NCBI GenBank assembly: GCA_964613495.1
Contig: CAZTHE010000005.1
Coordinates: 1-60,452, forward strand
Reading direction: 5' to 3'
DNA length: 60,452 bases
DNA from: an uncultured Acidobacteriota bacterium
GTDB taxonomy: Bacteria; Acidobacteriota; UBA6911
Below the pieces are notes generated by a model. That model did not search any database. It worked only from the letters and a program-made list of their open reading frames with translations, and was not told where the DNA came from. Shown one piece after another: positions 14,590-58,598 of this stretch. Made by a program: the position numbers and the translations under genes. How positions within the stretch are numbered: position 1 is the first letter of the stretch; each line of letters begins with the position of its first letter.

Positions 14590-14676
14590 GATTCCGGATT
14601 CCGGATTCCGGATTGAATCCAGCCTGCCGAAAACTCATCAGCCTATCCGGAATCCGAAATCTGAAATCTGGAATCC
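14590..14676. repeat. Inverted heptamer arrays (GATTCCG)n ... (CGGAATC)n forming a long hairpin
   Basis: Left arm 14590-14623 is GATTCCG x3 plus GATTGAA. Right arm 14645-14676 is CGGAATC CGAAATC TGAAATC TGGAATC, followed by a T7 run. Confidence 0.8.
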
Positions 14677-16802: not shown

Positions 16803-16912
16803 TTATCTCGTCCTCCTCGGGACTCTCAAGAATGGTAGTACGATTTTTAGAAACGTAACACTAACAGAGAAGAAAGGCGTTCTCAAGAAAAAACAGATCA
16901 TGCGAGCGATCA

Positions 16913-17027
16913 GGTTGGAAGGTTTGAAGGTTTGAAGGTTGGGGGGTTGGGGAGAGTTGGAGAGATTCGTGAAATCCGTGGCCCCTCCCAGCCTCAATTC
17001 ACCGGCGAGATTCGTGAAATGCGTGGC
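16913..17027 (+). repeat. Short tandem array (AGGTTTGA-like) followed by two CGTG boxes
   Basis: 16913-16963 is GGTTGGAAGGTTTGAAGGTTTGAAGGTTGGGGGGTTGGGG... CGTG boxes are GATTCGTGAAATCCGTGGC (16964-16982) and GATTCGTGAAATGCGTGGC (17009-17027). Confidence 0.8.
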
Positions 17028-31065: not shown

Positions 31066-31245
31066 CCTGCACCGTGCCTCCGGCACTACGGATCACCGCA
31101 TTGCCCAGCCACCGCAGTGCACTCCAGCACTCCGGATCGCCGCAATCCCAGTTACCGCGGTGCATCCGGCACCCGGTTCACCGCAGTGCCCCCGGCACTC
31201 CGGGCCTCAATTCTTCGTGCAATCCGCGAAATCCGTGGGCAGGCG
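31066..31245 (+). repeat. Degenerate array of GTGCCTCCGGCAC-type hairpin units ending in a degenerate CGTG box
   Basis: GTGCCTCCGGCACTACGG..., GTGCACTCCAGCACTCCGG..., GTGCATCCGGCACCCGG..., GTGCCCCCGGCACTCCGGG, then TTCGTGCAATCCGCGAAATCCGTGGGC. Confidence 0.7.
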
Positions 31246-32244: not shown

Positions 32245-32320
32245 ATTCTCCGTGTAATCCGTGCAATCCGTGGCTTACTTCGGGCCTCGGACCCCGGCGA
32301 AATTCGTTGAATTCGTGGCC
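32245..32320 (+). repeat. Composite CGTG-box element (copy 1)
   Basis: ATTCTCCGTGTAATCCGTGCAATCCGTGGC, an approximately 25-nt spacer, then AAATTCGTTGAATTCGTGGCC. Confidence 0.85.
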
Positions 32321-32330
32321 GGCCGGCGAC

Positions 32331-34961
32331 TCACAGCTGAACGACATTCGCCTCGCCGACGTTGGCGTACCTTTCCGGCATGCAGGTGAACACGATGATC
32401 TGGCAGCATTTGGCCGCCCTGGACAGCACCGCCCCCACGAGGTGCAGCCTCTGCGGATCGGTGTACCCGAGCGCGTCATCCAGAATGAGCGGCGTGCCTT
32501 CCCTGTCCGCCACGATCATGGAGCAGGCCAGCCGGAAGACGAGCGAGAGCTGCTCTTTCGTGCCGCCGCTCAGCGACTCGAACGGCACGGAGACGCCGTC
32601 GAGCCTGCGGCTGGCGATCTGCAGGTCGTCGCCGATTTCCACGCCGAAGGAATCGTCGAACACCAGGCGCCCCAGCGCCTCGACTTTCTCCTTCAGCGGA
32701 GCCACATAGGCGCGGCGCACCCGGTCGCGCTCTTCGCGCATGGTCTCGAACAGGCACTTCGCCGCCTGCGCCCGCCGCGCCAGCGACGCGTTCCCGGCCG
32801 CCAGCCTTTCGGCGTTCGCCCGGGCCGCCTGCAGCTTTTCGTGCAGCCCCTCCTCTCCCTGCATCTTCAACCGCGTCTGCACTTCGGTCATTTCGGTCTG
32901 CGCGGCGCCCCGGCGCTTCTGCGTCGTCAGCAGCGATCCCCGGGCCGTGTCGTCCAGCAGCCGCACCCTCTCCGGATTCCTGGCCTCGAGCATCGCCTCG
33001 GAATCGCGCACGTTCGCCTCTTCCGCCGCCACGGCGCCGATCGCCTTCTCCAGCTCGCCGTCCACGGCTTCGTCGGCGAGGCTCTTGCGCGCCCGGCCGA
33101 GATTTTCGCCCGCCTGCTCGAGGTCGCGCGACAGCAGCTCGATCTTCACCTTCAGCTCCTGGTGCTTCCCGTTCAGCCCGTCGCGCACCGTGCGCGCCGC
33201 TTCGAACGCGTCGCGCGCGGCATCCCACGCTGCATTCGCCTCTTTGCAGAAGGACTCGGCGCCGGCCTTTTCGGCCTTCGACGCTTCCAGGTCGGGCGCG
33301 ATCGGCGGCTCCGCGGCGCGGCGCTCGAGATAGGCGGGGACGCTCTGCTGCAAACCGCGCAGTTTCCGGTCGAGTTCCTCGTAGCTGAGGTCACGCAGCG
33401 TTTCCTTTTCGACCCGCTCCAGCTCTTCCAGCTGCCGCTTCGCCTTTTCGTGTTCTTCGTAAGCCGCCTGCGCCTCTTCGGGAGTGGACACGCCCGCCTT
33501 GGCGCACGCCTTTTCCAGGGCGAGCCTGACTTCTTCCACCTTCTGCGCCAGCGCTTCGGCGCTCGAGCCGGCGGCGATTTCGATTTCGAGCAGCTCCGGC
33601 AGGCTCAGCTTCAGCTTTTCGGGCACGGAAAACGTCCGGGTTTCCCCTTGGCCGATCCGCGTCTCTTCGGAATCGACGATCAGGCGGCAATCGGCCAGGG
33701 CGCGCAGCCGGACGCCGGGCGCGGCCGTGGCGAGCTGGGCGCCGGCCATGAGCAGTTCGCGCTCGGCGTTGCGGATCGACTTGAGCTTGCGCTCGTCGAC
33801 CTTGTTGGCTGCGAGCGTCTGCCCGGCTTCGGCCGCCCGCTGCCGCGCCGCGTCGATGCGTTCCTTGCGCTCCTGCATCTGTTCGAGGTGCAGGCGGTTA
33901 TTGTAGTAGTCGAAATCGGCCCGCCGCAGCTCGAGGACCGTGTCGGCCTCCTTGCGCTCCTGTTCGGCGGCGGCAAGAACCTCCTTCGCCCGGGCGAATT
34001 CGTCCTCGGCGCGCTTCAAGGATTCGGAGGAAATCTGGAATTCCTCCTGGAGTCCCTTGCGCTCCCGGTCGGCATTGGCGACCGCATCGATGAGCCCCTT
34101 GCGGTGCTCTTTTTCCTTCCGCGCCGCCTGCGCCGTCTTCCGCGCCGACTCGAGTTTGAGCCGCGCCTCCGACAGGACCTTTTCCAGCGCGGCGATCTCT
34201 TCGAGCGACAATTTGTATCGGTCGACTTCGGCCGTCTGTTCCGCTTCCTGTTTCTTCAGCCGGGCCAGTTCCTGCTGCAGGACGGCGGCGCGTTCGATGT
34301 CCTGTTCGAGATCTGCAAGGACCCGGGCGAAACGCGCGGATTCCGCCTCGGCGGCCGCCACGGCATTGCGCGATTCGTTCAGCTCTTTCTTCTCTGCCCC
34401 GCGCTCGGTGTAGTAGCGCAGGAATTCCTCCCGCACGGTTTCGAACAGGTCCTCCTGGCGCGGATCGGCCGACTGGCCGCCGGCGGCCTTATCGAGCGCG
34501 GCGGACAGCGAGGTCTGGCTGGCGAGCGACGGCTGCCGCACCGCGTCTCCCTGCTGAATGGTCAGCGCCTTCCACAGGGTGACGTCGAGGGTCTCTTCGA
34601 GAATGGCGGCGGCGCGGTCGTGCGCCTCGCGCCCGGTGAGGTTTTCGGCTTTTGGCCGGGCGATGGCCAGCCGCGTCTCCGGCTTTTTGTGGAACCGCTT
34701 GAAATAGGTGAAGCGGTAGGGCCCGCTCTCGGCCTCGAGCTCGATTTCGGCCCCTTCGTCGCGGTGGACGGGGCGGACGGCTTCGACCGCGCGGTGTTTG
34801 CTGTTGTCGGGGTATTCGAACAGGAGCCCGATGGCCTCGCCGAGGCTCGTCTTGCCGGCCTCGTTGGGCCCCTGGATGAGGGTGATGCCGAGCGGGCTGA
34901 AGCGCACTTCGGCGGAAGGCACGCCGCGGTAGTTGGCGATGCGGAGCCGGAGGAATTTCAT
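32331..34961 (-). CDS. SbcC/YhaN-like SMC-type ATPase
   Basis: Walker A GPNEAGKTS. Approximately 600 aa of coiled coil. Signature FESLSGGTKEQ. Walker B LILDDALGYTD. Confidence 0.85.
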   Translation of the reverse strand: MKFLRLRIANYRGVPSAEVRFSPLGITLIQGPNEAGKTSLGEAIGLLFEYPDNSKHRAVEAVRPVHRDEGAEIELEAESGPYRFTYFKRFHKKPETRLAIARPKAENLTGREAHDRAAAILEETLDVTLWKALTIQQGDAVRQPSLASQTSLSAALDKAAGGQSADPRQEDLFETVREEFLRYYTERGAEKKELNESRNAVAAAEAESARFARVLADLEQDIERAAVLQQELARLKKQEAEQTAEVDRYKLSLEEIAALEKVLSEARLKLESARKTAQAARKEKEHRKGLIDAVANADRERKGLQEEFQISSESLKRAEDEFARAKEVLAAAEQERKEADTVLELRRADFDYYNNRLHLEQMQERKERIDAARQRAAEAGQTLAANKVDERKLKSIRNAERELLMAGAQLATAAPGVRLRALADCRLIVDSEETRIGQGETRTFSVPEKLKLSLPELLEIEIAAGSSAEALAQKVEEVRLALEKACAKAGVSTPEEAQAAYEEHEKAKRQLEELERVEKETLRDLSYEELDRKLRGLQQSVPAYLERRAAEPPIAPDLEASKAEKAGAESFCKEANAAWDAARDAFEAARTVRDGLNGKHQELKVKIELLSRDLEQAGENLGRARKSLADEAVDGELEKAIGAVAAEEANVRDSEAMLEARNPERVRLLDDTARGSLLTTQKRRGAAQTEMTEVQTRLKMQGEEGLHEKLQAARANAERLAAGNASLARRAQAAKCLFETMREERDRVRRAYVAPLKEKVEALGRLVFDDSFGVEIGDDLQIASRRLDGVSVPFESLSGGTKEQLSLVFRLACSMIVADREGTPLILDDALGYTDPQRLHLVGAVLSRAAKCCQIIVFTCMPERYANVGEANVVQL

Positions 34962-36085
34962 GCCACCCTCCTTGCCAGCCGCAGCAGCAGCATCAGGGCG
35001 TCGCGGGCCGCCGGAGGCGCGTCGCCTCCCGCCTGGATGGAGGCGCGCAGCCGCTCTACGGTCGCGTCGGCGAAGCCCGAGAAGCCGAGGTCGGCGAAAT
35101 CGGCGTCTTCGGGCACGGCCACAAGCCCTTCGTCCCGCACCTCGAAGGCGGCGAACAGATCTCCGGCGGCGGCCAGGCTCCTATCGAGCGCCTCCCGCGC
35201 GGACAGGGCGAGCGACCCGGCGAGTTCCAGCCGGACGACCGTCCGCTCTTTGTTTTCGATCGCCTCGAGCCACGCGGCCAGGAGCGCCACGTCTTCGGCC
35301 GCATTGACTTCCGCCTCGTGCCGGAGGAATTGCCACTGGCCGACCCGGACTTCCCTGGCAGCGGCGCCGGCGGCATCGACGTCGACGACGAGGGCGTAGC
35401 CGGACCGTATCTCGGAAAAGTCGGTCGTCTCGGGCGTCCCGGAGTACCAGACCCGGCCGTTTTCGCTCAGGCCCGTAGCGGAATGCCGGTCGCCCAGCGC
35501 CGCGTAATGGATCCGCCCGTCGGCGAGAGCGGCGTCGAGCGCCGCCAGTTCGATGACGCCGGCCGCCTCGGGATCCGGCGCGAGCCGGTCGACGGCGCCG
35601 TGGGCCGCGCAGATGCGCACGACATCGTTTGCCGGGGCGAGCGCCTCGAGGGCTTCCGCGGCGGGGTTGACGACGGGCCGCTTGGAGGTCCAGACGCCGC
35701 CCACCAGTTCGACGTCGTCCGCCGGGCGGACGGGGAGGGCTTTTTCGAGGATATGGACGTGCGCCGGCTTGCGTTCGAGGAAGGCGCCCGAGCGGTAGAC
35801 GGACGCGGCGTTGAGCGGATCGTGGTTTCCCGGCAGGATGTAGACGGGCACGGGGACGTCCTTGAGCGCTTCGAGCGCGCGCGCCACGGTCCTGCGGTCC
35901 ACCTGGTTCGATTCGAACGCGTCGCCGCAGACAAGCAGGAACCGGCAGTTCTCCTCTTTTGCGACGCGCCCCATCGCCCGGATGGCGTCGAATCGCGCCT
36001 GCGCGTACCGCTCCTGCGCCCCTTCGGACAGGAACCGCCGCGTCATCCCCAACTGCCAATCGCTCGTATGCAAGAATCGCGTCAT
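34958..36085 (-). CDS. SbcD/YhaO-like metallophosphoesterase nuclease
   Basis: Start at MTRFLHTSDWQLG, preceded by GGGGAGGGG. Motifs CGDAFES and LPGNHD. ATGA overlap with the ATPase gene. Confidence 0.85.
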   Translation of the reverse strand: MTRFLHTSDWQLGMTRRFLSEGAQERYAQARFDAIRAMGRVAKEENCRFLLVCGDAFESNQVDRRTVARALEALKDVPVPVYILPGNHDPLNAASVYRSGAFLERKPAHVHILEKALPVRPADDVELVGGVWTSKRPVVNPAAEALEALAPANDVVRICAAHGAVDRLAPDPEAAGVIELAALDAALADGRIHYAALGDRHSATGLSENGRVWYSGTPETTDFSEIRSGYALVVDVDAAGAAAREVRVGQWQFLRHEAEVNAAEDVALLAAWLEAIENKERTVVRLELAGSLALSAREALDRSLAAAGDLFAAFEVRDEGLVAVPEDADFADLGFSGFADATVERLRASIQAGGDAPPAARDALMLLLRLARRVA

Positions 36086-36129: not shown

Positions 36130-36146
36130 GTGACATCCGGGGTCAC
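36130..36146 (-). promoter_or_regulatory. Shared promoter/operator motif GTGAC-N7-GTCAC (copy 1, drives the sbcDC-like operon)
   Basis: The reverse complement contains TGACCCCGGATGTCAC. TAATAA (36117-36122, minus strand) lies 18 nt downstream, then an RBS and ATG 36085. Confidence 0.55.
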
Positions 36147-36292
36147 AGCACAGGACGATTCCTGATAGATGATTTTAACTTGCCAGCACCCACTTGCGGC
36201 CTGCGCTTCTGCAATACACGATAGATTACGACACTAAATAATATTTTGCTTTAATCCCCAAGCAAGGCAATTATATTAGGATCGTGGAAATT

Positions 36293-38293
36293 ATGTATCC
36301 AAACCAAGACGCAATCATATCGCCGCTGCGCGCTTGGTATAGCGCCAGAATAGCAGATTTCATGCTTTGCCGCCCCGAATCCGTTCTTGGATGCCTTGCA
36401 GGGCATTCCGATTTTGCCTTGAATGAGAACCAGCGGGATGCCTGGATCGCGGAGATCAGGATTCTGCATGCCGAACTGAGGGGAATCGAGGGCCACCTAT
36501 TTCTCGAATTCAGTATTCCGCGCATGGGTCGACGCGCGGACGCGGTGCTAATTGTCAATCAGGCAATATTCGTCATTGAGTTCAAAATTGGACAAAGGCA
36601 CTTCGAGCGATCAGCCCTTAATCAGGTCTGGGATTACGCGTTGGACCTTAAAAACTTTCATCAGGGCAGTCATGATGCCGCCATCTTTCCCATATTGGCT
36701 ATTGATAAATCGAGAAGCGCTCAACCCACCGAGTTTTGTAGAGATCCCGATGGCGTATTCCATCCCATTCCGACTGTTTCGTCGAATCTGCGGACGGTTC
36801 TGTTTTCAGCCCTCAGAAACGCGAGCGGGCCTGCGCTGAATGCCGCCGAATGGGCCGGAGCACCCTACCATCCGACGCCTACTATAATTGAGGCCGCGCG
36901 AGCGCTTTACTCACAGCATTCTGTTGAAGCCATTGCGCGTTTCGATGCCGGCGCGAAGAACCTGCAAACTACCTCAGGCAGAATCGAGGAGTTGTCTCAT
37001 GAAGCCCGCAGTAGAAAACGCAAGTTGATCTGTTTTGTTACAGGCGTACCGGGCGCAGGAAAGACCCTGGTTGGATTGAACCTGGCTGCGAAAAGAGAGG
37101 ATTTGAGTTCATCGCATGCGGTTTTTCTTTCAGGGAATGGCCCGCTGGTTGCCGTGCTGCGGGAAGCGTTGACTCGTGACGAGTATCAGCGGCGGAAGAG
37201 CTTGGGAGAACGCACACGAAAGGGCGTGATCAAGGAGAGCGTAAAGAGCTTTATTCAAAATGTTCACCACTTTCGCGACGAGGGTTTGATCGATGACCGC
37301 GCGCCAAATGAGCATATCGTCATATTTGATGAGGCCCAGCGGGCGTGGAATTTGAAAAAGACAGCCGATTTCATGAACCGGAAAAAGCGGCGGCCGGGCT
37401 TTTCGCAGTCAGAGGCGGAGTTCCTTATTTCCTGTATGGACAGGCACAGCGACTGGGCCGTTATTGTCTGCCTGGTTGGGGGAGGTCAGGAAATCAATAC
37501 CGGCGAAGCCGGGATCGAAGAATGGGTAAGCGCTATTCACCGGAATTTTCCGGAGTGGCGCATGTTTATATCTGACAGGCTCACGGATTCTGAATATGCC
37601 GCCGGAAAGACGCTGGAGATTATCCAGAAACGCCCGTCCACGCACTTTGACAATTCGCTCCATCTTGCCGTTTCCATGCGTTCTTTCCGCGCAGAACATG
37701 TATCTCAATTCGTCAAAGCGCTGCTCGACTGCGAACAGTCTGAGGCCCGGAAGGTTTTCGAAATGATAGATGCGCGCTACCCCATCGCTGTTACGCGCAA
37801 CCTTGATTCTGCGAAGCAATGGATCCGAAGTCATGCCAGAGGTTCCGAAAGATATGGTCTTATGGCTTCATCCAAAGCCATGAGGCTGAAACCTCACGCC
37901 ATCGATATCAGGGTGAATGTCGATCCTGTTCACTATTTCCTGAACCAGCCGGAAGATCCGCGGTCGAGTTTTTATCTTGAAGATGCGGCTACGGAATTCC
38001 AGGTTCAAGGCTTGGAACTGGATTGGACGTGCGTCACCTGGGACGGCGATTTCCGGTTTAACGGATCCGGGTGGAATTTCCATGACTTTCGCGGCCATCG
38101 ATGGGTCAATATGGCCAATGCGGATAACAAGACCTATCTTCGCAACGCCTATCGGGTTCTTCTTACGCGCGCCCGGCAAGGCATGGTGATCTTTGTCCCA
38201 CCGGGAGACTCCCGGGATCCGACTCGCCCTCCCGGCTTTTATGGTCCCACTTTCAAATACCTGAGAGATTTGGGAATTCCTGAAATCGGATAA
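36293..38293 (+). CDS. DUF2075-type protein: PD-(D/E)XK nuclease-like N-terminus plus P-loop SF1-like helicase/ATPase
   Basis: RRADAVLIVNQAIFVIEFK (D...ExK), Walker A GVPGAGKT, Walker B VIFDEAQRAW, and C-terminal YRVLLTRARQGMVIFVP. AT-richer than the flanks. Confidence 0.8.
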   Translation: MYPNQDAIISPLRAWYSARIADFMLCRPESVLGCLAGHSDFALNENQRDAWIAEIRILHAELRGIEGHLFLEFSIPRMGRRADAVLIVNQAIFVIEFKIGQRHFERSALNQVWDYALDLKNFHQGSHDAAIFPILAIDKSRSAQPTEFCRDPDGVFHPIPTVSSNLRTVLFSALRNASGPALNAAEWAGAPYHPTPTIIEAARALYSQHSVEAIARFDAGAKNLQTTSGRIEELSHEARSRKRKLICFVTGVPGAGKTLVGLNLAAKREDLSSSHAVFLSGNGPLVAVLREALTRDEYQRRKSLGERTRKGVIKESVKSFIQNVHHFRDEGLIDDRAPNEHIVIFDEAQRAWNLKKTADFMNRKKRRPGFSQSEAEFLISCMDRHSDWAVIVCLVGGGQEINTGEAGIEEWVSAIHRNFPEWRMFISDRLTDSEYAAGKTLEIIQKRPSTHFDNSLHLAVSMRSFRAEHVSQFVKALLDCEQSEARKVFEMIDARYPIAVTRNLDSAKQWIRSHARGSERYGLMASSKAMRLKPHAIDIRVNVDPVHYFLNQPEDPRSSFYLEDAATEFQVQGLELDWTCVTWDGDFRFNGSGWNFHDFRGHRWVNMANADNKTYLRNAYRVLLTRARQGMVIFVPPGDSRDPTRPPGFYGPTFKYLRDLGIPEIG

Positions 38294-38341
38294 GATAAAC
38301 CGAGGGCGCAGGCGTCAAGCCAAAGGCGTCCGAATACTGTT

Positions 38342-40009
38342 TCAGGGGCTCCACCGGTCGATTCCTCGCTGATGGGCCGTAACCTCCACTGATTCCAGCA
38401 TCACATCGAATGTCTTTGACAAATCAAATGTCGGCCCGGCCGTGAAGCGAAGGGATTCCCTTTCGAATCTCTTCGGATACGCCCGGTGCAGGGCATCCCA
38501 GTAATCCAGGACGACGCTTCTCCTCTTCCTGAGGAGAGAATTGCTGGGGAGCCGGTCCGCCTTTGCACGGTTGGCGCTCGAGGCGGCGGGAAGCAGGTTC
38601 CAGAGATCGTTATTGCGCCAGAGCGAGAAGGGGAGCACGTGGTCCACTTCAAATGAGCGAGACAGCGGAACACCAGTCCATACGCATTCTTTGGACGGCA
38701 GATCCCGGTAAATGTTCCTGGCTTCCGTGACACTGCGGTCGAATGTGGGAATGCGCAGGAGCCGGTCGATGATCTGGCTTGGGCTGAGGGCTTGTCCTGA
38801 GATCTCGGACGTCAGTTCGCTCCAGCGAAGCAGAAGCGCGTCCTGGATCCAGTGACCGGAAAGGCATAGTTCCCGCCAAACGTCGGCGCCCATGAGCAGA
38901 CGCCGCGTACGGCGGTCATAGGTGAATATGTTACTGTTCGTGCTGGAAGAGCGGCCCGCATGCGTCACGGGGCCCTGGATGATGGTCGCGGTCAGCTTAC
39001 TGCAGACCCGATCCTGAAGCGATTTCTCCTCGGCATTGAGCGCGTCGTTTCTGACGGCAGCGGCGAAAGCGTCGAGCCCGCCGGTTCGCCGGAAGGAGTC
39101 AATCATCGTCTCGAGATCGCGGCGGAAGGCGATGGGCTTCCGGCTGCCGCGGATTTCGCCTCGGATCTGCGGGATGAACGCTTCAGCGTTATCCATCAGC
39201 GGCCAGTAGTAATAGATCCAACGTTCGGCGATCTCGCGCATCGGCACGCCCACCGTGCCGTCCGCATTCCATGTCGCCGCATGATAATTGGTCAGTGCGA
39301 TGTCGCATAGCGCCCGGAACAAGGCGAGCTTGTAGGTGGCTGTTTTCTTATCCCGGTTCAGTATTCCCTCGATCCGGTCGATGGGGCGCAGCACATCGTC
39401 CGATCGCAGGGCGAAAAGCAGCGTCGTCCAGCGGACGTTCCGGCCAAGAGTGTCCTGATTGTCCCATCGGCCGATACGCTGAAACCCGAGTCGCTCAAAG
39501 AGGAGTTCCACTGATTCCGGAACCAGTGGAGTGTAAAGGCGGCCCTTCTCGTCGCGGCCATCTTCACCCACGCCGGGCCGTTCTCCCGGGAAGGAGAGGA
39601 GCAATCGACCGCTGGGTTTAAGGAGGTTACGGAGGTCGAAGGCCGCGTCGAACTGTCTCTCCGCGGGAAGATGCTGAAATACGGCGGAGCAAAGAATGCC
39701 ATCAAATTTTCTTTGTATGTTCGCAGACAGGTCCGGGAGGGCGGCCGACCAGATGCGCTCGGACATTTCCGGGTGTTTCGACAGGTAGAGGGAGCGCATG
39801 CCGGCGCTCGGCTCAGTGCCGTAGATTGCGTACTCCTCTTTGACCAGAATATCGAGATCGCGTCCCGATCCGGAACCGACATCGAGAATTTGCGCTCCCG
39901 GAGGAAAAGCCAGCCGAAAATATTGCTCCACGCCGCCGCGGGCGGATTCGTAAAGACTGGAAACCTCCCCGGCGTTGTCGTCGTAATAGCGGATCGTGCG
40001 TTCGTCCAT
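38342..40009 (-). CDS. Fusion protein: class I SAM methyltransferase, unknown central domain, HNH nuclease
   Basis: Motif I ILDVGSGSGRD (39861-39900). Central KKTATYKLALFRALCDIA region. C-terminal EVDHVLPFSLWRNNDLWNLLPAASSANRAKADRLP. An alternative TTG start is at 40069. Confidence 0.75.
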   Translation of the reverse strand: MDERTIRYYDDNAGEVSSLYESARGGVEQYFRLAFPPGAQILDVGSGSGRDLDILVKEEYAIYGTEPSAGMRSLYLSKHPEMSERIWSAALPDLSANIQRKFDGILCSAVFQHLPAERQFDAAFDLRNLLKPSGRLLLSFPGERPGVGEDGRDEKGRLYTPLVPESVELLFERLGFQRIGRWDNQDTLGRNVRWTTLLFALRSDDVLRPIDRIEGILNRDKKTATYKLALFRALCDIALTNYHAATWNADGTVGVPMREIAERWIYYYWPLMDNAEAFIPQIRGEIRGSRKPIAFRRDLETMIDSFRRTGGLDAFAAAVRNDALNAEEKSLQDRVCSKLTATIIQGPVTHAGRSSSTNSNIFTYDRRTRRLLMGADVWRELCLSGHWIQDALLLRWSELTSEISGQALSPSQIIDRLLRIPTFDRSVTEARNIYRDLPSKECVWTGVPLSRSFEVDHVLPFSLWRNNDLWNLLPAASSANRAKADRLPSNSLLRKRRSVVLDYWDALHRAYPKRFERESLRFTAGPTFDLSKTFDVMLESVEVTAHQRGIDRWSP

Positions 40010-40082
40010 TGGGACCCGATTGTACTGCCTCCGGCCTGAGGCTCGCAAGCGGAGAGGAATTTCCGGCAAAGCAGGGGAAGCG

Positions 40083-41039
40083 TCAGATTTCCGATTCCAG
40101 TTTGTCGACCTCGTCCATAAGAAGCTGCTTTTCGCGCGGGCCGGGCATTTCGCCTTTGTGGATCATGTCGTTGCGCACCTGGCGGAGGGACTGCCAGACG
40201 GCCTTTCGCACCGGGGTGACCGGACCGTAGTTCGGGAGGGCGTCGATCACCTCCTCGAGCGAAACCTGCGCGCCCGCCTCCGGGAGGTGCAGCTGCGCCG
40301 CAAGCCTGCGGATCAATGTCTCGAAACAATGGCAGGCCACGAGGACGGCGATGTCCGGCTTCACCGCGGACAGCGCCTTCGCCAGCTTCGCGTCGGAAAG
40401 CTCCGCGAGCGGCGCCACCAGGTTGTTCGCCCGCAGCTGCAGCATGAAATTGTCCTCGCGGTACATCCTTAAAATCTCCGGGTTCCGGTACTGGCCGAAA
40501 CATTTCTCGTGCAGCACCCACAACGCCATGTCCGCGTCCGCCACGCGCGCAAAACCCGCGTGCCGCCGGATCTCGCGCAGGTTGCCGAGATAGGCCAGGT
40601 ACGTCTCCACCAGGTCGCGGCCGTGCCGGATGTCCAGCATGTGCTGGATCGGCGAGCTGAAAATCGCATAGTGCTCCGGACGGATGAACCTCAGGATGAT
40701 CGAGGTCAGCTCGATCGATTTGAATATGTGCAGCAGCTGGCGGACCGTCTCCGGTTCGTTGCTTTCCGGCAGATTCCAGAAATCGAACGTCGCCTGCGTG
40801 AGCGCCGGCTCGATCTTCTCCCTGGGCGGAAATACCCAGAAGCGCTTGAACCACCAGTGCTCGGGCGATTCGAAATATTCCAGGTCGGAATACCTCAAGG
40901 GCGTGCTGCGCCGCAACCCGCGGACCTTCTCCTCCACCGAGGCGAGGTCGAAGTCGGCGCCGTATTTCATCCTGCAGACCGCGGCGAAATCATTCAGACA
41001 TGATTGCAGGTAGTTCCCTGCCAGGCCGTCCGGCGGCAT
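40083..41039 (-). CDS. Hypothetical protein with a C-terminal HEPN-like R-x4-H motif
   Basis: SLRQVRNDMIHKGE, with the R codon at 40173-40175 and the H codon at 40158-40160. N-terminal approximately 200 aa unassigned. Upstream gene of the pair. Confidence 0.55.
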   Translation of the reverse strand: MPPDGLAGNYLQSCLNDFAAVCRMKYGADFDLASVEEKVRGLRRSTPLRYSDLEYFESPEHWWFKRFWVFPPREKIEPALTQATFDFWNLPESNEPETVRQLLHIFKSIELTSIILRFIRPEHYAIFSSPIQHMLDIRHGRDLVETYLAYLGNLREIRRHAGFARVADADMALWVLHEKCFGQYRNPEILRMYREDNFMLQLRANNLVAPLAELSDAKLAKALSAVKPDIAVLVACHCFETLIRRLAAQLHLPEAGAQVSLEEVIDALPNYGPVTPVRKAVWQSLRQVRNDMIHKGEMPGPREKQLLMDEVDKLESEI

Positions 41040-41101
41040 ACGCACCTCGATGATTCATTCATCGGCAATCGACCGCGAAATGTGACAATTCTAATGCCAA
41101 A

Positions 41102-41117
41102 TGACCCCGGATGTCAC
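41102..41117 (+). promoter_or_regulatory. Shared promoter/operator motif (copy 2, drives the Zn-ribbon/DUF2779 operon)
   Basis: Exact TGACCCCGGATGTCAC. GATAAA at 41126-41131, RBS GAGGAGG, ATG 41175. Confidence 0.55.
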
Positions 41118-41174
41118 CCCTGTGCGATAAAGTGGTTATCTGGGAGTGCCTAAAACTGCGAGAGGAGGATTTCC

Positions 41175-41408
41175 ATGAGTGAAAATGTCCACACGACCTG
41201 TAATTGGTGCGGTAAAGATATTGCCTACGGGAATGCCCAGGTCACAATTAACCGCAATATTGAACAGATGGACAGCACGGAGGAATATCCGGAGGGAGAG
41301 GTCACGGTAATTCAAAGCGACGTCCTGCTGGAACTGTGCGCCGAGTGCGGGAATAAACTCGACACCGAGACGATCACCAAAATATTGCTTGCCATAAAGC
41401 CGAAATAG
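41175..41408 (+). CDS. Small zinc-ribbon protein
   Basis: 77 aa with two CxxC pairs (CNWC and CAEC). Strong GAGGAGG RBS. Confidence 0.6.
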   Translation: MSENVHTTCNWCGKDIAYGNAQVTINRNIEQMDSTEEYPEGEVTVIQSDVLLELCAECGNKLDTETITKILLAIKPK

Positions 41409-41465
41409 TCGATGCTGGGGAGACAGGCAATCAAATATTCCGGTCCTGGCAGGGGACAGCCCAAA

Positions 41466-42935
41466 ATGCCTTATAAAAAGCATTTGCTGACGAAAAGCGC
41501 CTTCATCAACGCCCTCAATTGCGAGCGGTTTTTCTGGGTGTACCAGAACGAGCGGGAGCGGTTGCAGGAGCCCGATGAGGCCCAGCAGGCCCTCTTCGAT
41601 CAGGGACACAAGGTCGGCGACATGGCAAAAATGCTGTACCCCGACGGTATCGAGATCGACTGGGACGCCGGGCACGAGGCCGGCATCGCGCAGACCGCCG
41701 GTGTTCTCGGGCAGCGACGGCCCGTCTTCGAGGCCGGATTCCAGCACCGGCTGACCCATGCGCGCGCCGACATCCTCGCGCCTTCCTCCAACGGCAGATG
41801 GGACCTCATCGAGGTCAAGAGTTCCACCGGGGTCAAAGAAGAACACCTCGACGACGTGGCTTTTCAAAAGCACGTCTACAACGCCGCGGGCATCCGCATC
41901 GGCCGGTGCTTCGTGATGCATGTGGACAAGGGCTATGTGCGCAGGGGGGAACCGGATCCAAAGGCCCTGTTTGCGCGAACGGATGTTACGACCGAAATCA
42001 AGCCGCTGGCCGGCGATATGCCCGCGCGGATCAAAAGGCTGCTTTCCATAATGTCCAAGGCCAAAGCCCCGGCCCCCAACCTCGGGACCCATTGCGCCAA
42101 ATGCCCGCTCTACGACGAATGCTGGTTCTTTCTGCCCGAGCGCCACGTTTTTCAACTGAACCGCGCCCGGCAGAAGGCCTATCAACTTATGGAGGAGGAC
42201 ATCCTGGCCATCCGGGACATCCCGGATGACTATCCGCTGACGGCCAGGCAATCCATTCAAGTCGCATGCGAGAAGGCCGGGAAACCGCACGTTCAACCCC
42301 GGCAGATCCAGGCGTTTTTAGGCTTGCTGAAATACCCGCTTCATTTCCTCGACTTCGAGACTTTCATGGCGGCGATCCCCCCGTATGACGAATCGAGACC
42401 CTACGAACAGGTGCCGTTTCAATACTCGCTTCACGTCATCCCGGCCCCGGGGCGGCGGGCGACGCATTATTCGTACCTGTCCGACGGGAAAGCCGATCCG
42501 CGGCCGGAGGTCCTCTCCACGCTCAAAAAACGGCTCGGACGCACCGGCTCGATCGTCGCCTACAATGCCGCATTCGAAATGCGCGTGCTGCGATCGTGCG
42601 CCGGCCATTTCGACAAATATGCCGCCTGGTGCGAGTCGCTGATGCCCCGCTTCGCCGATCTGATGGCGCCCTTTCGCGATTTCCACTACTATCACCCCGA
42701 TCAGGAGGGAAGTGCATCGCTGAAAGCCGTCCTGCCGGCGATGACCGGGAAGTCCTACGATAATCTTGCGATATCCGACGGCGCGACCGCCGGCCTCAGG
42801 TTCTGCGAAATGGCATTCGGCGGCGCGGCGGAACCCGGGAAGAAGCAAATCCGCAGGGCCCTGGAAGCCTACTGCCGCCAGGACACCCAGGGCATGATCG
42901 ATATCCTCAAAAAGCTGCGAAACCTGGGCAAATAA
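41466..42935 (+). CDS. DUF2779 protein: Cas4-like Fe-S PD-(D/E)XK nuclease plus DEDD/RNase-H-like exonuclease domain
   Basis: C...CAKCPLYDEC cysteine set, RADIL...WDLIEVK nuclease motif, then HFLDFETF, AYNAAFE and CRQDTQGM exonuclease-like motifs. Confidence 0.8.
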   Translation: MPYKKHLLTKSAFINALNCERFFWVYQNERERLQEPDEAQQALFDQGHKVGDMAKMLYPDGIEIDWDAGHEAGIAQTAGVLGQRRPVFEAGFQHRLTHARADILAPSSNGRWDLIEVKSSTGVKEEHLDDVAFQKHVYNAAGIRIGRCFVMHVDKGYVRRGEPDPKALFARTDVTTEIKPLAGDMPARIKRLLSIMSKAKAPAPNLGTHCAKCPLYDECWFFLPERHVFQLNRARQKAYQLMEEDILAIRDIPDDYPLTARQSIQVACEKAGKPHVQPRQIQAFLGLLKYPLHFLDFETFMAAIPPYDESRPYEQVPFQYSLHVIPAPGRRATHYSYLSDGKADPRPEVLSTLKKRLGRTGSIVAYNAAFEMRVLRSCAGHFDKYAAWCESLMPRFADLMAPFRDFHYYHPDQEGSASLKAVLPAMTGKSYDNLAISDGATAGLRFCEMAFGGAAEPGKKQIRRALEAYCRQDTQGMIDILKKLRNLGK

Positions 42936-42967
42936 TTCCTGATATTTATAGAGCGGGCCTACGGCCC

Positions 42968-43051
42968 TCCTCCGTGTAATCCGTGCAATCCGTGGCTAAT
43001 AAAGGCTTTGCGCCTTCCGGCCCAGCCGCAAAATTCGTGCAATTCGTGGCC
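42968..43051 (+). repeat. Composite CGTG-box element (copy 2)
   Basis: CTCCTCCGTGTAATCCGTGCAATCCGTGGC, spacer, then AAAATTCGTGCAATTCGTGGCC. The 28-nt core is identical to copy 1. Confidence 0.85.
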
Positions 43052-43180
43052 ACAGTAGATTATGCCCTCCGGACTTCGGCAACGGCGTTCATGAATGTGG
43101 GTTCGAGGTCACACCGTGGGTGAGAAAGAGGACGCCGAATTAACATTTCGCCGGAATGGCATTATCGACAAGTAGTCTAT

Positions 43181-43567
43181 TCAAGGCGCAGAGGGACTTC
43201 CGGGCTTGCGGCTGATGCGGATGTGTCCGGGTTGCACGACAACAAAAGAGTCCGGGAGAGTGATTTTGTTCTCGCGGATAACCCGGACAACAGATTGAAC
43301 CATGGACTGACGGGAATTGCCAGGAAAACGAATAAGTATGACTCCCGCCGATTCAGCGCGGCTGACAAAAACCAGCCAGCCGAAATCCTTGTCTTCCGTC
43401 AGCAAAATGCGCTTTTCTACATGGGCAAGGTTTATCAAGGTTCGGTCATCAGAGCGGGGCATAGCTTCGCTGACGGCCACGACATCGCAACCCTCGGCTC
43501 GCAAAGCCCGTACAACGGCAAAATCGCAGCTTTCATCGGCCAGGAAACGCAGAGAGGCGGGCATCAT
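43181..43567 (-). CDS. DUF5615-family PIN-like toxin
   Basis: LRFLADESCDFAVVRALRAEGCDVV ... LLTEDKDFG. Overlaps the upstream DUF433 gene. Confidence 0.8.
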   Translation of the reverse strand: MMPASLRFLADESCDFAVVRALRAEGCDVVAVSEAMPRSDDRTLINLAHVEKRILLTEDKDFGWLVFVSRAESAGVILIRFPGNSRQSMVQSVVRVIRENKITLPDSFVVVQPGHIRISRKPGSPSAP

Positions 43568-43791
43568 GCGGTGTGGAACACGATAGTTTCGTGGGCGAGA
43601 GAATCGGCGGCAAAGGCCAGAGCTGCCTGGATGTCGGCGGCTGTAAGGTTTGGATAAGCATCCAGCAGGTCGGCTTCCGTGGCGCCCTCACTCAATTTAC
43701 GCAGAATGAGTTCGACTGGGATGCGGGTCCCGCGTATAACGGGTTTCCCGAGCATTACCTCCGGATTAACCTCCACTCTATCATTCACCAT
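43564..43791 (-). CDS. DUF433-family antitoxin
   Basis: Start at MVNDRVEVNPEVMLGKPVIRGTRIPVELIL, the DUF433 signature. Confidence 0.8.
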   Translation of the reverse strand: MVNDRVEVNPEVMLGKPVIRGTRIPVELILRKLSEGATEADLLDAYPNLTAADIQAALAFAADSLAHETIVFHTA

Positions 43792-43908
43792 AGGCTCAAC
43801 TCCAGAATGGAAACACTCCATGAATTATAATGCGAAATTAATGTCCCGCAAACGGTTATCGTGGTTGAAGGGAATTCCGGGAACCGACGAAAAAACTTCA
43901 GGGTGAAT

Positions 43909-43924
43909 TGACCCCGGATGTCAC
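43909..43924 (+). promoter_or_regulatory. Shared promoter/operator motif (copy 3, drives the TPR genes)
   Basis: Exact TGACCCCGGATGTCAC preceded by T (TTGACC). GTTTAT at 43932-43937, RBS GGGAGG, ATG 43960. Confidence 0.55.
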
Positions 43925-43959
43925 GCCTCCCGTTTATCCTGCGCGCATGGGAGGCGGAC

Positions 43960-44904
43960 ATGTCAGATTCGAATGAAAACGATAAATCCCCGATAGAATC
44001 GGAACCACGCATCAAGCTCAAGTCCCCGGCGCTGCGGCGCTGCGAACGGGCCGTCCGGCAGAATCCCGACGACGCCCATAACTGGTTCAATCTGGGCAAG
44101 TTACTTCTGGATTCCGGCCGGAACCCGGAGGCCGAGGCCGCCCTGCGGCAGGCCCTGGACCGGGAGCCCGGATCGGCCAACTACCGCTATTACCTGGCCA
44201 ATGCCCTCGGAAACACCGGCAAATTCGCCGAGGCCGCCGTCGAGTTCACGCGCCTCGCGGCCATCGATCCCCAGCTGCAGGACCCGATGTCCACGGTCGG
44301 CCTCTCCGTGTTGACAGACCTCGCATATTGCCTGGGGGAAATGGGCGACTGGCAGGCGGCCTTTGATGTCCTGCAGCCCGCCGCCGCCCTCGCCCTGTCG
44401 GTCATCGGAGACCTCGCGGCGTTCAAAACCAATGCGAAGGAATACGACCTCGCGTGCTTTCTCTATTCGACCGCCCTCCTCCTCGCGCCGCAGGACGCCG
44501 AGCTGCAGCACGGCGCGGGCCACTGTCACCTGAAATCCGGCAGGCTGCGGGAGGCGCTGACACACCTGAAAAAAGCCAGCAAGGCCGATCCGAAGGACCC
44601 GGACATCTGGTACGACTTCGGCCTCGCCCTGTCCACGATGCGGAAAGGGCGGCAGGCGCGGCCGTGTTTCCGGAAGGCGCTGCAGCTGGATCCGAAGCAT
44701 TTCTGGGCCTGGTACGACCTCGCGTGCCTGGACGCGCTGGGGAAAAAGCCGGATGCGGCCTTCCGGAACCTGTATAAGTCCATCGAATGCGGGTTTGCCA
44801 ATCGCGAGCACATGGCGGGGGATGCGGATCTGCGGGGTCTGCACAAGGATCCGCGGTGGAAACTGGCGCTGGAGAGTGTTTCCGGCAGCGGCGCCGTGAA
44901 CTGA
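43960..44904 (+). CDS. TPR-repeat protein
   Basis: Start at MSDSNENDK, because the upstream ATG at 43918 would lie inside the promoter motif. Repeated W/Y-x-LG-x-L-x-x-G-x-x-EA pattern. Confidence 0.75.
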   Translation: MSDSNENDKSPIESEPRIKLKSPALRRCERAVRQNPDDAHNWFNLGKLLLDSGRNPEAEAALRQALDREPGSANYRYYLANALGNTGKFAEAAVEFTRLAAIDPQLQDPMSTVGLSVLTDLAYCLGEMGDWQAAFDVLQPAAALALSVIGDLAAFKTNAKEYDLACFLYSTALLLAPQDAELQHGAGHCHLKSGRLREALTHLKKASKADPKDPDIWYDFGLALSTMRKGRQARPCFRKALQLDPKHFWAWYDLACLDALGKKPDAAFRNLYKSIECGFANREHMAGDADLRGLHKDPRWKLALESVSGSGAVN

Positions 44905-44959: not shown

Positions 44960-45676
44960 ATGCGCGTGAACGAAGAGAACGATTTTGACGGTTTCATCAC
45001 CGAAGACGGAACGATGATCCCCATCGAGGACGTCGAAAGAGTGTCGGCCCTGTTCCTCCAGGCCACGACGGTGGACGACGCCGTGACCACCCTGCGGCGC
45101 CTCACGTCGGACTGCCTCGACATGGGACGCCTGGACGCGGCGAGAGGCTACTACGAGAAAATTCTCCTGCTGGTGGATTCCCCGGAAGAAAAGGCCGAGT
45201 GCTTTCTCGTCATGGGAGGCATCCTGGAAAACCTGAGCAAATACCGTGAAGCCGAGGAAACCTACGCGCGGGCATTCGACCTGCCGCAGGAGTCCAACCA
45301 TGACTGGTATTTCCTCAACAACAACCGCGGCTATTGCCTCAACCAGACCGGACGCCACACTGAAGCCGCGGTGTTCTGCCTGGACGCGATCCGGATCGAT
45401 CCCGAGCGGCACAACGCTTACAAAAACCTGGGGATCGCTCTCATGCGCCTCGGCAGATACGCCGAAGCCGCCCAAAACCTGGTGCGGGCCACCGAGCTGT
45501 GCCCGGCCGATCCGCGCGCCCTGGCCATCCTGGACGAGATCTATGTCGGACACAGGGAGAGGGTCCGGGAGATGCCGGATTTCCCGGCGCAATTGTTCCG
45601 GTGCCACGAGCTGGTGCAGGATGCGCAGAAAAAGGCGGCGGAACGCGCGCCCAAACGAGGCGCCGGGAACGGGTGA
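44960..45676 (+). CDS. TPR-repeat protein
   Basis: 238 aa. TPR-like AYKNLGIALMRLGRYAEAAQNLVRATELCPADP. Confidence 0.7.
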   Translation: MRVNEENDFDGFITEDGTMIPIEDVERVSALFLQATTVDDAVTTLRRLTSDCLDMGRLDAARGYYEKILLLVDSPEEKAECFLVMGGILENLSKYREAEETYARAFDLPQESNHDWYFLNNNRGYCLNQTGRHTEAAVFCLDAIRIDPERHNAYKNLGIALMRLGRYAEAAQNLVRATELCPADPRALAILDEIYVGHRERVREMPDFPAQLFRCHELVQDAQKKAAERAPKRGAGNG

Positions 45677-45836: not shown

Positions 45837-47312
45837 ATGGTGAATTGTACCCATGGTTTGGTTCAAATAGGCAGGCGTGATTTCATCAGAACAACGGCGA
45901 TCGCGGGAGTGGCGGGCGCGATCCCGACGGTTTCCGCACTCGCCCAGGAGGCCCCGGGACCGGTCCGGCCGGCATACACGGGTAAACAGAGAAAGGTGCT
46001 CCTCCTGAGCAGCAACCCGGAGGCGCACGGCTCGCTGATCCAGGCAATCAAGGGCATCAAGGAGTTCGACGTCGCCGTCGAGACCGTCAAGGCCGACTAC
46101 CGCAACCCGAAAGACATCCGCAAATACATCCAGGGCAAGGAAGCCCACGTGCTCTTCATGTGCCTGACGGGCGCCGGCCTCAACTCGGGGATCTATGCCG
46201 AATACATGGGCACGCTGGACATGCCCGTGATCCTTCTCCCCGTGAACCTCGACCTGATCATGCTCGAAGCCGACGTGGCCGCCACATTCCGCTCCAAAGG
46301 CACGACCGCCATGCTCGCCAACTCCGAGCAGCACGCGGTCGAACTTGTGAAATTCGCCGCGGCGCCGATGCTGCTCGAAGGCAAGAAAGCCGTCATCTTC
46401 GGACGCCCCTACGATTCCACCAGCGTCCCGATGCCCAACCTGAACGCGGACTACATTTATAAGCACACGGGCGTCCACCTGGCATACAGGCCGATCGACG
46501 AGCTAAGGGCGGGCCTTGCCGGAGTCGACGAAGCCAAAGCCCGGAAAGAGATGGAGCGGTGGAAAAAAGAGGCCGTCAAGGTCACCGAAGCCACCGACCA
46601 GGCCATTCTCGACGCCTGCAAGCTCTACCTCCTCATGCGATCCATCGTGGAAAAGGAGGGCCTGTCGGGCATCTCGATCGACTGCCTGAGCTTCACCTTC
46701 ACCCCCAAGCCGACGCTTCCCTACCCCTGCCTCGCCTTCACGCGCCTGCGCGACGACGGATACGCCGTGCCGTGCGAAGCCGATGTCTGCGGCATGATCA
46801 CGTCCATGTTCCTGCAGGAAATCAGCCGGAAGCCTTCCTATTTCTATAATCCTTCTTCGGTGGACACCGGAAGATCCACCACCGTGCTGCGGCACTGCGT
46901 GGCCCCCGTGCGTTTCATGGGACGCGACGCCGATCCGCTCCCCTACATCATCCGCGATTACCACGGGATGGGGGGAGCCACGCCGGAAGTCCAGTTCCCC
47001 ATCGGGGCCGAAGTCACCCTGGGCGGGTTCAGCAAGGACCTCAAAAATTTCCTCATGTGGCCCGGGAGGATCCAGGAAGGGGTGAAGGACACCAATCGCC
47101 CGTCGTTCGAGAATTCTCCGTCCAAGATGCGCCGATACTGCACCAACCGGGCGGAAGTGAAGCTGAAGGACATCGGGCGGTTCCTGCAGAATATCGCCGG
47201 CATCCACCAGGTCATGGTCGCGGGCAGCTATACCGATGCGATCCAGCAGGCGCTGCTGCGGATGAACGTCACCATCACCAGCCCGGCGGATTCGACGCCG
47301 CCGGCCGCATAG
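45837..47312 (+). CDS. Tat-signal hypothetical protein
   Basis: GRRDFIRTTAIAGVAGAIPTVSALAQ twin-arginine leader. 491 aa with coding-like composition. No secure family. Confidence 0.6.
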   Translation: MVNCTHGLVQIGRRDFIRTTAIAGVAGAIPTVSALAQEAPGPVRPAYTGKQRKVLLLSSNPEAHGSLIQAIKGIKEFDVAVETVKADYRNPKDIRKYIQGKEAHVLFMCLTGAGLNSGIYAEYMGTLDMPVILLPVNLDLIMLEADVAATFRSKGTTAMLANSEQHAVELVKFAAAPMLLEGKKAVIFGRPYDSTSVPMPNLNADYIYKHTGVHLAYRPIDELRAGLAGVDEAKARKEMERWKKEAVKVTEATDQAILDACKLYLLMRSIVEKEGLSGISIDCLSFTFTPKPTLPYPCLAFTRLRDDGYAVPCEADVCGMITSMFLQEISRKPSYFYNPSSVDTGRSTTVLRHCVAPVRFMGRDADPLPYIIRDYHGMGGATPEVQFPIGAEVTLGGFSKDLKNFLMWPGRIQEGVKDTNRPSFENSPSKMRRYCTNRAEVKLKDIGRFLQNIAGIHQVMVAGSYTDAIQQALLRMNVTITSPADSTPPAA

Positions 47313-47346
47313 GCAGTCGGCAGTCGATAGTCGGTAGTCGGCAGTA
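47312..47346. repeat. Heptanucleotide tandem array starting at the last base of the stop codon
   Basis: GGCAGTC GGCAGTC GATAGTC GGTAGTC GGCAGTA. Confidence 0.8.
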
Positions 47347-49445: not shown

Positions 49446-49565
49446 CGGACGTTCCAGCGCCGCAGGCGCTGCATCGTCCCTTCAGGACTCGGCTTCTTTA
49501 CTAATCCACACCCGGGATTCCGTCGCCCGCTTCGCGGGCTCCGTCATCCCGGGCTTTGCTGTATC
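49446..49565 (+). repeat. 5-prime module of the composite intergenic element (copy A)
   Basis: GCTGCATCGTCCCTTCAGGACTC...ACCCGGGATTCCGTCGCCCGCTTCGCGGGCTCCGTCATCCCGGGCTTTGCTGT. About 80 percent identical by eye to 52874-52980. Confidence 0.8.
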
Positions 49566-49830
49566 GTGCCTCCGGCACTCTGCCCCGGCGTTACACCGAT
49601 CGATGCTTCACTTCATCATGCCTCCGGCACTCTACGGCGGCGTTACACCGATTGACGCCTCACGCCACCGTGCCTCCGGCACTCTGCCCCGGCGTTACAC
49701 CGATCGATGCTTCACTTCATCATGCCTCCGGCACTCTACGGCGGCGTTACACCGATTGACGCCTCACGCCACCGTGCCTCCGGCACTCTACGGCGGCGTT
49801 ACACCGATCGATGCTTCATGGCAACGCCCC
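49566..49830 (+). repeat. Tandem repeat, five 52-bp units (A-B-A-B-B')
   Basis: GCCTCCGGCACTCT starts at 49568, 49620, 49672, 49724 and 49776. The 104-bp A-B pair is duplicated essentially perfectly. Confidence 0.9.
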
Positions 49831-49833
49831 TCG

Positions 49834-49923
49834 GGCACTCCCGGCCCCATTCTCCGTGTAATCCGTGAAATCCGTGGCTCCCTCCGCGCCTTGGACCCCT
49901 GCGAAATTCGTGGAATTCGTGGC
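49834..49923 (+). repeat. Composite CGTG-box element (copy 3)
   Basis: GGCACTCCCGGCCCCATTCTCCGTGTAATCCGTGAAATCCGTGGC, spacer, then AAATTCGTGGAATTCGTGGCC. Confidence 0.85.
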
Positions 49924-58439: not shown

Positions 58440-58598
58440 TGTGCCGCCCCTTGCGGGGCTCATTCCGTGACTCGTGTGGACCCCGGGCTTGCGCCCGGGG
58501 CTACTCACTGCCGCGCCTTCGGCGCTGTCAGGCCCGAAGGGCCGGTATTGAATAGGCCCGGCCGTCAGGCCGGGAGTTGCGAACCAAACCCACGTCTG
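58440..58598. repeat. Cluster of GC-rich hairpins between convergent genes
   Basis: GCCCCTTGCGGGGC, CCCCGGGCTTGCGCCCGGGG, GCGCCTTCGGCGC, GGCCCGAAGGGCC, and GGCCCGGCCGTCAGGCCGGG. Confidence 0.7.

Follow-up and report, generated by a model that had tools for sequence, protein, structure and literature searches.

The 60,452-nt contig of an uncultured Acidobacteriota bacterium analysed here (CAZTHE010000005.1, positions 1 to 60,452 of the forward strand; the whole stretch is called the window below) carries the 16-mer TGACCCCGGATGTCAC in exactly three copies, with no other copy at up to three mismatches, and each of them lies in promoter position facing one of three operons, namely an sbcDC-like pair, a Zn-ribbon/DUF2779 pair and a pair of TPR genes (Table 1). 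A reading of the DNA made from its letters alone (the sequence-only reading) had pointed out these exact copies and their placement before three operons and had considered the triplet to be beyond chance. An exact search bore out the copies, their promoter position is supported, and a 16-mer in triplicate turned up in just 1 of 200 third-order Markov simulations of the window. Some details had to be amended. The first interval had been given as 36130-36146, which is 17 nt and includes an extra G; that G at 36146 completes the inverted repeat GTGAC-N7-GTCAC at copy 1, but A and T replace it before TGAC in copies 2 and 3, so the repeat stands as proposed at copy 1 only. Similarly, the divergent intergenic setting claimed for all copies applies to copies 1 and 2, the gene call upstream of copy 3 being uncertain. 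Copy 1 is also kept in the contig of a near-identical strain (L162).

Table 1. Positions of the boxes, their promoters, the genes around them and other features of the window (RBS, ribosome-binding site; WYL box, proposed site of a WYL regulator).
Feature	Position	Strand	Remarks
WYL box copy 1	36130-36145	-	Exact match to TGACCCCGGATGTCAC; promoter of sbcD-like gene
WYL box copy 2	41102-41117	+	Exact match; divergent region between DUF4145 and Zn-ribbon genes
WYL box copy 3	43909-43924	+	Exact match; upstream of TPR pair
-10-like hexamer TAAGCT	36119-36114	-	10 nt after box 1, intervening tggggtgtaa
-10-like hexamer TAAAGT	41128-41133	+	10 nt after box 2, intervening ccctgtgcga
-10-like hexamer TATCCT	43935-43940	+	10 nt after box 3, intervening gcctcccgtt
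Copy 1 promoter	predicted start ~36107; ATG 36085-36083	-	RBS GGAGGGG
Copy 2 promoter	predicted start ~41140; ATG 41175	+	RBS GAGGAGGA
Copy 3 promoter	predicted start ~43947; ATG 43960	+	RBS GGGAGG
Possible divergent canonical promoter GTGACA-N18-TAGAAT	41088-41117	-	Promoter scan, 10/12 matches
Operon 1	32331-36085	-	sbcDC-like pair behind box 1
SbcD/Mre11-like metallophosphoesterase	34958-36085	-	Pfam Metallophos
SbcC/Rad50-like ATPase	32331-34961	-	Pfam AAA_23, SMC_N
Operon 2	41175-42935	+	Behind box 2
77-amino-acid Zn-ribbon protein	41175-41408	+	Pfam
DUF2779/Cas4-like PD-(D/E)XK nuclease	41412-42935	+	Pfam
Operon 3, two TPR proteins	43960-44904 and 44960-45676	+	Pfam; behind box 3
DUF4145 gene	40083-41045	-	Weak Pfam match; divergent from box 2
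Schlafen/DUF2075-type helicase	36284-38293	+	PADLOC candidate system PDC-S41, E = 4e-274
Methyltransferase-HNH fusion	38342-40069	-	Adjoins PDC-S41-like helicase gene
Acido-Lenti-1 RNA match	58481-58526	+	51.5 bits (gathering score 37)
Acido-Lenti-1 RNA match	58530-58575	-	40.7 bits (gathering score 37)
52/104-nt tandem repeat	49563-49840		5.3 copies, 82-98% matches; intergenic, upstream of CopA-type ATPase gene
Second array	31074-31191		Hairpin-forming core GTGCCTCCGGCAC in common with 49563-49840 array
Short tandem repeats	7179-7209, 14590-14614, 16912-16940, 32249-32272, 42971-42994, 47312-47345, 49853-49876
Short tandem repeats, further positions	47346/47384/56925 and 11428/43030

An alignment of the three copies that takes in 55-70 nt of either flank is invariant only at the 16-mer itself and at a T-A-N3-T that starts 10 nt later; the flanks are otherwise unrelated, so the motif does not belong to any longer repeat. 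TAnnnT is the signature of the housekeeping -10 element, and in 3/3 copies it lies 12 nt downstream of the promoter-proximal GTC of the box (GTC-N12-TAnnnT). If the hexamer occupies -12 to -7, the box is predicted to span about -38 to -23, and transcription would begin at the starts that we infer in Table 1. The bases at a 17-nt spacing are an invariant CCCCGG, which agrees with TTGACA at 0 of 6 positions, and a scan with the sigma-70 consensus gave no promoter in the forward direction for any box. The sequence-only reading had paired TGACC as a -35 with the hexamers TAATAA, GATAAA and GTTTAT. Those hexamers are displaced by 2-3 nt from the conserved TAAGCT, TAAAGT and TATCCT, and since 20-21 nt separate TGACC from the -10 in all copies, as against the 16-18 nt spacer required, TGACC lies too far away to serve as a sigma-70 -35. 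The feature is real and regulatory, and most likely the boxes are docking sites for a regulator just upstream of the -10. An upstream open reading frame starting from the ATG inside the box was rejected as an explanation: its frame agrees with that of the following gene at copies 1 and 3 and not at copy 2, and its ATG lies upstream of the -10 element, so transcription of it is not expected. Rfam gave no match at the three box sites, and no tRNA genes were found in the window.

The motif was followed beyond the window in two ways, by a genome scan (one genome per species) for the bare 16-mer with no -10 required and by a metagenome scan in which 16-mer-N10-TAnnnT was required, each yielding at least 120 loci; the site counts given for these scans are those among the matches listed. 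The arrangement 16-mer-N10-TAnnnT occurs at no fewer than 128 distinct intergenic promoter-type sites, in Nitrospirota, Acidobacteriota, Methylomirabilota (NC10) and Binatia. Within these four groups the genome scan placed TAnnnT at an offset of exactly 10 in 30/43 sites, with at most two at any other offset. The corresponding figure for other taxa was 1/81, and 70 of these 81 matches were inside long open reading frames; they were set aside as unrelated coding sequence, which encodes L-T-P-D-V-T, for example in ribosomal protein L1 and in AtuA-like genes. At the 46 sites of the unconditioned set, across phyla, positions 27, 28 and 32 from the start of the box were T, A and T in 36, 43 and 39 cases, and the base before the box was G in 33. 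The metagenome matches represent at least 114 distinct contexts, nearly all of them followed by an RBS and a start codon. In a text search of about 8.3 million papers, neither the 16-mer nor its reverse complement nor any of its shorter cores was met with.

Chance, or a small mobile repeat without a regulatory role, such as a repetitive extragenic palindrome (REP) or a miniature inverted-repeat transposable element (MITE), would be in keeping with the several other short dispersed and tandem repeats of the window. Yet the flanks of the three copies share nothing, and the box always has promoter position and orientation with TAnnnT at N10. The promoters of orthologous TPR genes in L226 and L134, whose proteins are 55-63% identical, have flanks that diverge and keep only the box and the TA...T. 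A phage element was also considered and rejected, for TAnnnT at N10 is absent from all 11 matches on viral contigs, 10 of which are located within long open reading frames. The sequence-only reading had named a longer mobile repeat found mostly outside promoters as the outcome that would overturn it; what was found instead is a motif in promoter position whose flanks are unrelated. Chance or mobility thus has a near-negligible probability and is, as far as the sequence evidence goes, already refuted.

Two other settings of the 16-mer were seen. In Ilumatobacteraceae (L023, L081 and L114) it forms the right arm of a 31-nt near-perfect palindrome, GTGACAnCTGGGGTC-TGACCCCGGATGTCAC, without TAnnnT at N10, which is a different use of the 16-mer in Actinomycetota. 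In three species of Dactylosporangium (L021, L045 and L056) it sits without a -10 in a conserved context of ~100 nt, which may be an unrelated conserved non-coding element.

The genes behind the box were tallied downstream of 149 sites. A small secreted repeat protein of Nitrospira accounted for 40 of them, ARPP-1 proteins for 14, a small Zn-ribbon protein for nine, Cas3 for seven, TPR proteins for five and HsdM for four; smaller groups comprised ORF6N, an SDH-type protease, Cas6-like proteins, an ADP-ribosylglycohydrolase-phosphatase fusion, PD-(D/E)XK nucleases, SbcD, DUF2779 and a RuvC-like protein. The three operons of the window belong to families that recur in this list. SbcD genes also stand behind the box in L162 and L127, homologues of both operon 2 genes adjoin it in L164, L156, L123, L231 and L186, and TPR1 orthologues follow it in L153, L226, L134 and L188; in L156 the box precedes a TPR2 homologue and then DUF2779. 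The shared box thereby lends support to what the sequence-only reading had proposed, a co-regulation of nuclease and TPR operons in a regulon of damage or infection type. The small Nitrospira protein has a signal peptide and N-P-rich repeats (GFDEKYQRDFNIFNPINQYQP...), lacks a Pfam match and is often multicopy within a genome (examples are L015, L044, L079, L101, L106 and ~30 metagenome loci). Upstream of many Nitrospira boxes there are TTCACG-type repeats similar to the short repeats of the window.

The gene most closely tied to the box encodes a protein of ~327 amino acids with winged helix-turn-helix (wHTH), WYL and WCX domains (Pfam HTH_11, WYL and WCX) and the C-terminus ...ELVGWILSFGSGVRVLxP..LR.KVREEARKI. 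In at least 12 loci (L006, L024, L102, L149, L204, L224, L226, L252-L258 and L263) the 16-mer begins with the TGA stop codon of this gene, so that the coding sequence of the regulator overlaps its own putative DNA site. Orthologues with 58-83% identity are present in 35 of the motif loci listed, each of which covers a few kb. In order to remove ascertainment bias we also started from the protein, which has homologues in 2029 clusters at E <= 1e-30, all with generic names only, and examined the contigs of six of them. In five of the six the box or a variant with one or two mismatches lies within ~1.3 kb, at or near the stop codon of the regulator: the exact box in P0029, and the variants TGACCCTGGATGTCAC in P0018, TGACCTCGGATGTCAC in P0064, TGACCTCAGATGTCAC in P0085 and TGACCCCACATGTCAC in P0108. 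The variants differ in the centre and keep the half-sites TGAC and GTCAC, and the boxes linked to these homologues precede type I cas operons of different subtypes (usually cas3/cas6) or a small gene.

By sequence the best solved relatives of the regulator are PafBC, PafC and DriD. A profile of 33 regulator sequences matched PafBC in the PDB at 6e-22 and DriD at 3e-17 over the full length, and BrxR and CapW at 4e-3 and 6e-2 in the WYL domain only. Foldseek with an AlphaFold model of the regulator ranked DriD first (3e-17), followed by PafBC and then CapW/BrxR (~1e-7). The recognition helix R41-T-I-R44-R45-D is invariant in 33 homologues, with R41 and R45 aligned to R37 and R41 of DriD, and conserved arginines of the WYL domain align with PafBC. 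A strongly conserved upstream element at a fixed spacing would also fit the -35/-10 pair of an alternative sigma factor, of the extracytoplasmic function (ECF) type, with the WYL protein a mere neighbour. We consider this very unlikely, however, as TAnnnT is the housekeeping signature, the half-sites GAC-N7-GTC have the two-fold symmetry of dimeric WYL sites and no sigma factor gene recurs beside the boxes as the WYL gene does.

The comparison with DriD of Caulobacter crescentus is the most detailed. DriD binds ATACGAC-N7-GTCGTAT, with the core CGAC-N7-GTCG, reads G2, C4, G12 and C14 via Arg37 and Arg41 and C1 via Glu40, and prefers an AT-rich centre, a GC-rich one cutting binding 20-fold (PMC10853764); its promoters lack a -35 and hold the box at a fixed distance from the -10 (PMC13004042). 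The same core, CGAC-N7-GTCG, is bound by DdaA of Acinetobacter (PMC13010146). Like DriD, the regulator linked to our box is a wHTH-WYL-WCX protein of homodimer type and of the size given above, and DriD ranks first among its structural matches. The window box shows the pseudo-palindrome GAC-N7-GTC with G2, C4, G12 and C14, and the regulator keeps both of the arginines that read them. The box also overlaps the place where a -35 would be, its GTC standing 12 nt from the -10 without a -35; the promoter sequence of didA likewise has GTC 12 nt from the -10. There are differences too. Identity between the two proteins is only 22-24%, and the outer base of the half-site is T/A rather than C/G. In place of Glu40 of DriD stands an invariant arginine, Arg44, which would fit an outer base pair that is T:A here instead of C:G. 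Moreover, the box precedes cas operons and conflict or nuclease genes, not recA, didA, recJ and dnaG, and the phyla differ.

Mycobacterial PafBC promoters (RecA-NDp) have the motif tGTCgg(N10)tA(N3)T without a -35, and PafBC acts on them by sigma adaptation, for which it uses a '-26 element' that spans -23 to -28 (PMC8635444). The promoters described here have the identical GTC-to-TAnnnT spacing, no -35 and a housekeeping -10, and PafBC is the best match among PDB sequences. PafBC is nevertheless a heterodimer or a fusion that reads one half-site, and its motif is not palindromic, whereas the window box adds the upstream half-site TGAC and 10 more conserved bases; nor was any pafA or proteasome gene context seen at the box loci. 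SiwR of Mycobacterium smegmatis is a homodimeric WYL activator whose site is a 19-bp imperfect palindrome between the -35 and -10 regions (PMC10693628). By its published description it resembles the system proposed here as a homodimeric WYL activator with a palindromic promoter site, and it differs in the sequence of its site and in a regulon that is local (adjacent dinB-like genes).

We propose, with a probability of roughly two in three (0.68), that the boxes are sites of a homodimeric wHTH-WYL-WCX activator of the DriD/PafBC kind which, activated by single-stranded DNA (ssDNA), replaces the -35 contact and co-induces the three operons. A WYL activator is favoured over a repressor or LexA because the wHTH-WYL-WCX protein co-occurs with the box across four phyla, because its nearest solved relatives, DriD and PafBC, are activators, and because the strict GTC-N12-TAnnnT equals the activator promoters of both. 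To the extent that sequence can test them, all the defining features of a WYL-activator promoter are present in the box and its linked regulator. By homology, ssDNA arising from DNA damage or phage attack would bind the WYL domains and thereby free the helix-turn-helix domains to bind the box. The bound factor would then recruit or adapt the RNA polymerase-sigma-A holoenzyme, substituting for the missing -35 contact, and the SbcCD-like, Zn-ribbon/DUF2779 and TPR operons would be turned on together. The possible divergent canonical promoter at box 2 would in addition have its -35 covered by the bound protein.

That the box might be a LexA/SOS operator of a non-model phylum had been suggested by the sequence-only reading, and an SbcCD-like operon together with nucleases would indeed suit an SOS regulon. 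In the Binatia-type loci L252-L255 a LexA-like gene (HTH_3 + Peptidase_S24) also lies ~1.1-1.5 kb upstream of the WYL gene and cas3, so it may be that SOS and WYL circuits are neighbours there. Across phyla, though, it is the WYL protein and not LexA that recurs beside the box, and the geometry of the box is that of WYL activator promoters. The LexA box of Acidobacterium capsulatum is reportedly GTTC-N7-GTTC. The suggestion thus finds no support and we regard a LexA operator as highly improbable; the 60-kb window contains neither the lexA nor the recA gene of the source genome.

The main rival is repression by the same WYL regulator at the same site, after the manner of CapW and BrxR in CBASS and BREX; it would occupy the promoter at rest and leave it when ssDNA binds. 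CapW and BrxR respond to ssDNA (PMC11662680). They share with our regulator the wHTH-WYL-WCX architecture and a position beside defence operons, and their targets are akin to those found here (cas3, cas6, HsdM, ARPP-1 and PD-(D/E)XK nucleases). Furthermore, the reverse strand of box 2 supplies the -35 GTGACA of a good promoter that points at the DUF4145 gene, and a -35 of this kind with TAGAAT or TACAAT is also present in L102, L063, L069 and L089, the gene in L102 being the regulator itself; binding should repress these promoters. By contrast, the forward promoters are without a -35 and offer nothing obvious to repress. Their boxes also keep a strict distance of 10 nt from the -10, as is typical for sites of activators that contact RNA polymerase, unlike the operators of CapW and BrxR, which are not phased to the -10. 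An operator of the CapW/BrxR type would overlap a complete promoter, and such an overlap is seen only with the divergent promoter of box 2 and not in the forward direction. In both sequence and fold, DriD and PafBC are much nearer to the regulator than the two repressors are; its similarity to BrxR and CapW is weak, confined to the WYL domain and short of placing it in their clade. We therefore consider repression unlikely. The dimeric repressor envisaged by the sequence-only reading holds as far as a dimeric helix-turn-helix regulator with inverted half-sites is concerned; the repressing role is not supported, given the DriD/PafBC relatives and the absent -35. One further box, in L143 around 7390 with G at -1, has TAnnnT at N10 on both strands, which suggests that one site may serve two divergent promoters.

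Several observations weigh against activation by a DriD/PafBC-type regulator. The centre of the window box, CCCGGAT, is GC-rich and nearly invariant, unlike the AT-rich centre that DriD favours, and the known WYL regulators tied to defence genes, BrxR and CapW, are repressors. One of the six homologues examined (P0091) has no box within 10 kb, and a tblastn search of the 60-kb window with eight orthologues found no homologue of the regulator, which is assumed to be encoded elsewhere in the source genome. The AlphaFold model used for the structural comparison is also of low confidence, with a predicted local distance difference test score (pLDDT) of 68 and a predicted template modelling score (pTM) of 0.35.

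The region around the boxes looks like a defence island, with the PDC-S41-like helicase, the methyltransferase-HNH fusion and the DUF4145 gene. The helicase gene has a low third-position GC of 0.57. The DUF4145 orthologue of L226 (66% identity by tblastn) is directly followed by the WYL regulator gene, and because the regulator there occupies the position of the methyltransferase-HNH gene, the helicase and methyltransferase-HNH pair of the window may be a recent insertion. The NCBIfam matches of the operon 1 proteins to sbcd and Rad50 fall below their cut-offs. Among related contigs, L162 shares 97.9% identity with the window over 3.6 kb, L153 matches it at 91.6% over 1.26 kb and has a TPR protein that is 98% identical, and L060, an Acidobacteriota metagenome-assembled genome, has 79% nucleotide identity over one gene. 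This last match and the two Acido-Lenti-1 RNAs point to an acidobacterial origin, for which NCBIfam supplied no decisive marker among the window genes.

Other, unrelated repeat families are also present in the window. Its intergenic tandem repeats of 7-9 nt have the units GATTCCA, GATTCCG, AGGTTTGA, TCCGTGCAA, GGCAGTC and AAATTCGTG, several of them directly 3' of stop codons, including those of the SbcC-like and DUF2779 genes. The two Acido-Lenti-1 RNA matches lie between convergent genes in opposite orientation and jointly make a long palindrome.

A broader interpretation, which we offer tentatively and regard as rather doubtful, is that at least four phyla share a portable induction module made up of the regulator and its box, through which box-bearing nuclease, CRISPR-Cas and conflict cassettes join one ssDNA-sensing, activating circuit. 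Were this so, defence islands would be switched on by an activator rather than de-repressed, and the invariance of the box together with the 58-83% identity of the regulators would reflect horizontal exchange of pre-wired cassettes. Literature searches that combined WYL proteins with these phyla, or with CRISPR, turned up no prior account of such a regulon.

In summary, the promoter design of PafBC and DriD would be extended from Actinobacteria and Proteobacteria to Acidobacteriota, Nitrospirota, Methylomirabilota and Binatia, four groups with almost no experimentally known regulons. The pattern TGAC-N7-GTCAC-N10-TAnnnT (TGACNNNNNNNGTCAC-N10-TANNNT) would serve to search uncultured bacteria of soil and water, the nitrite-oxidising Nitrospira among them, for a stress or defence regulon, and may provide a compact inducible promoter for organisms without genetic tools. 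Our reading predicts that type I CRISPR-Cas operons and several little-understood conflict systems, among them ARPP-1, DUF2779 and TPR pairs, would be induced by an ssDNA-sensing regulator.

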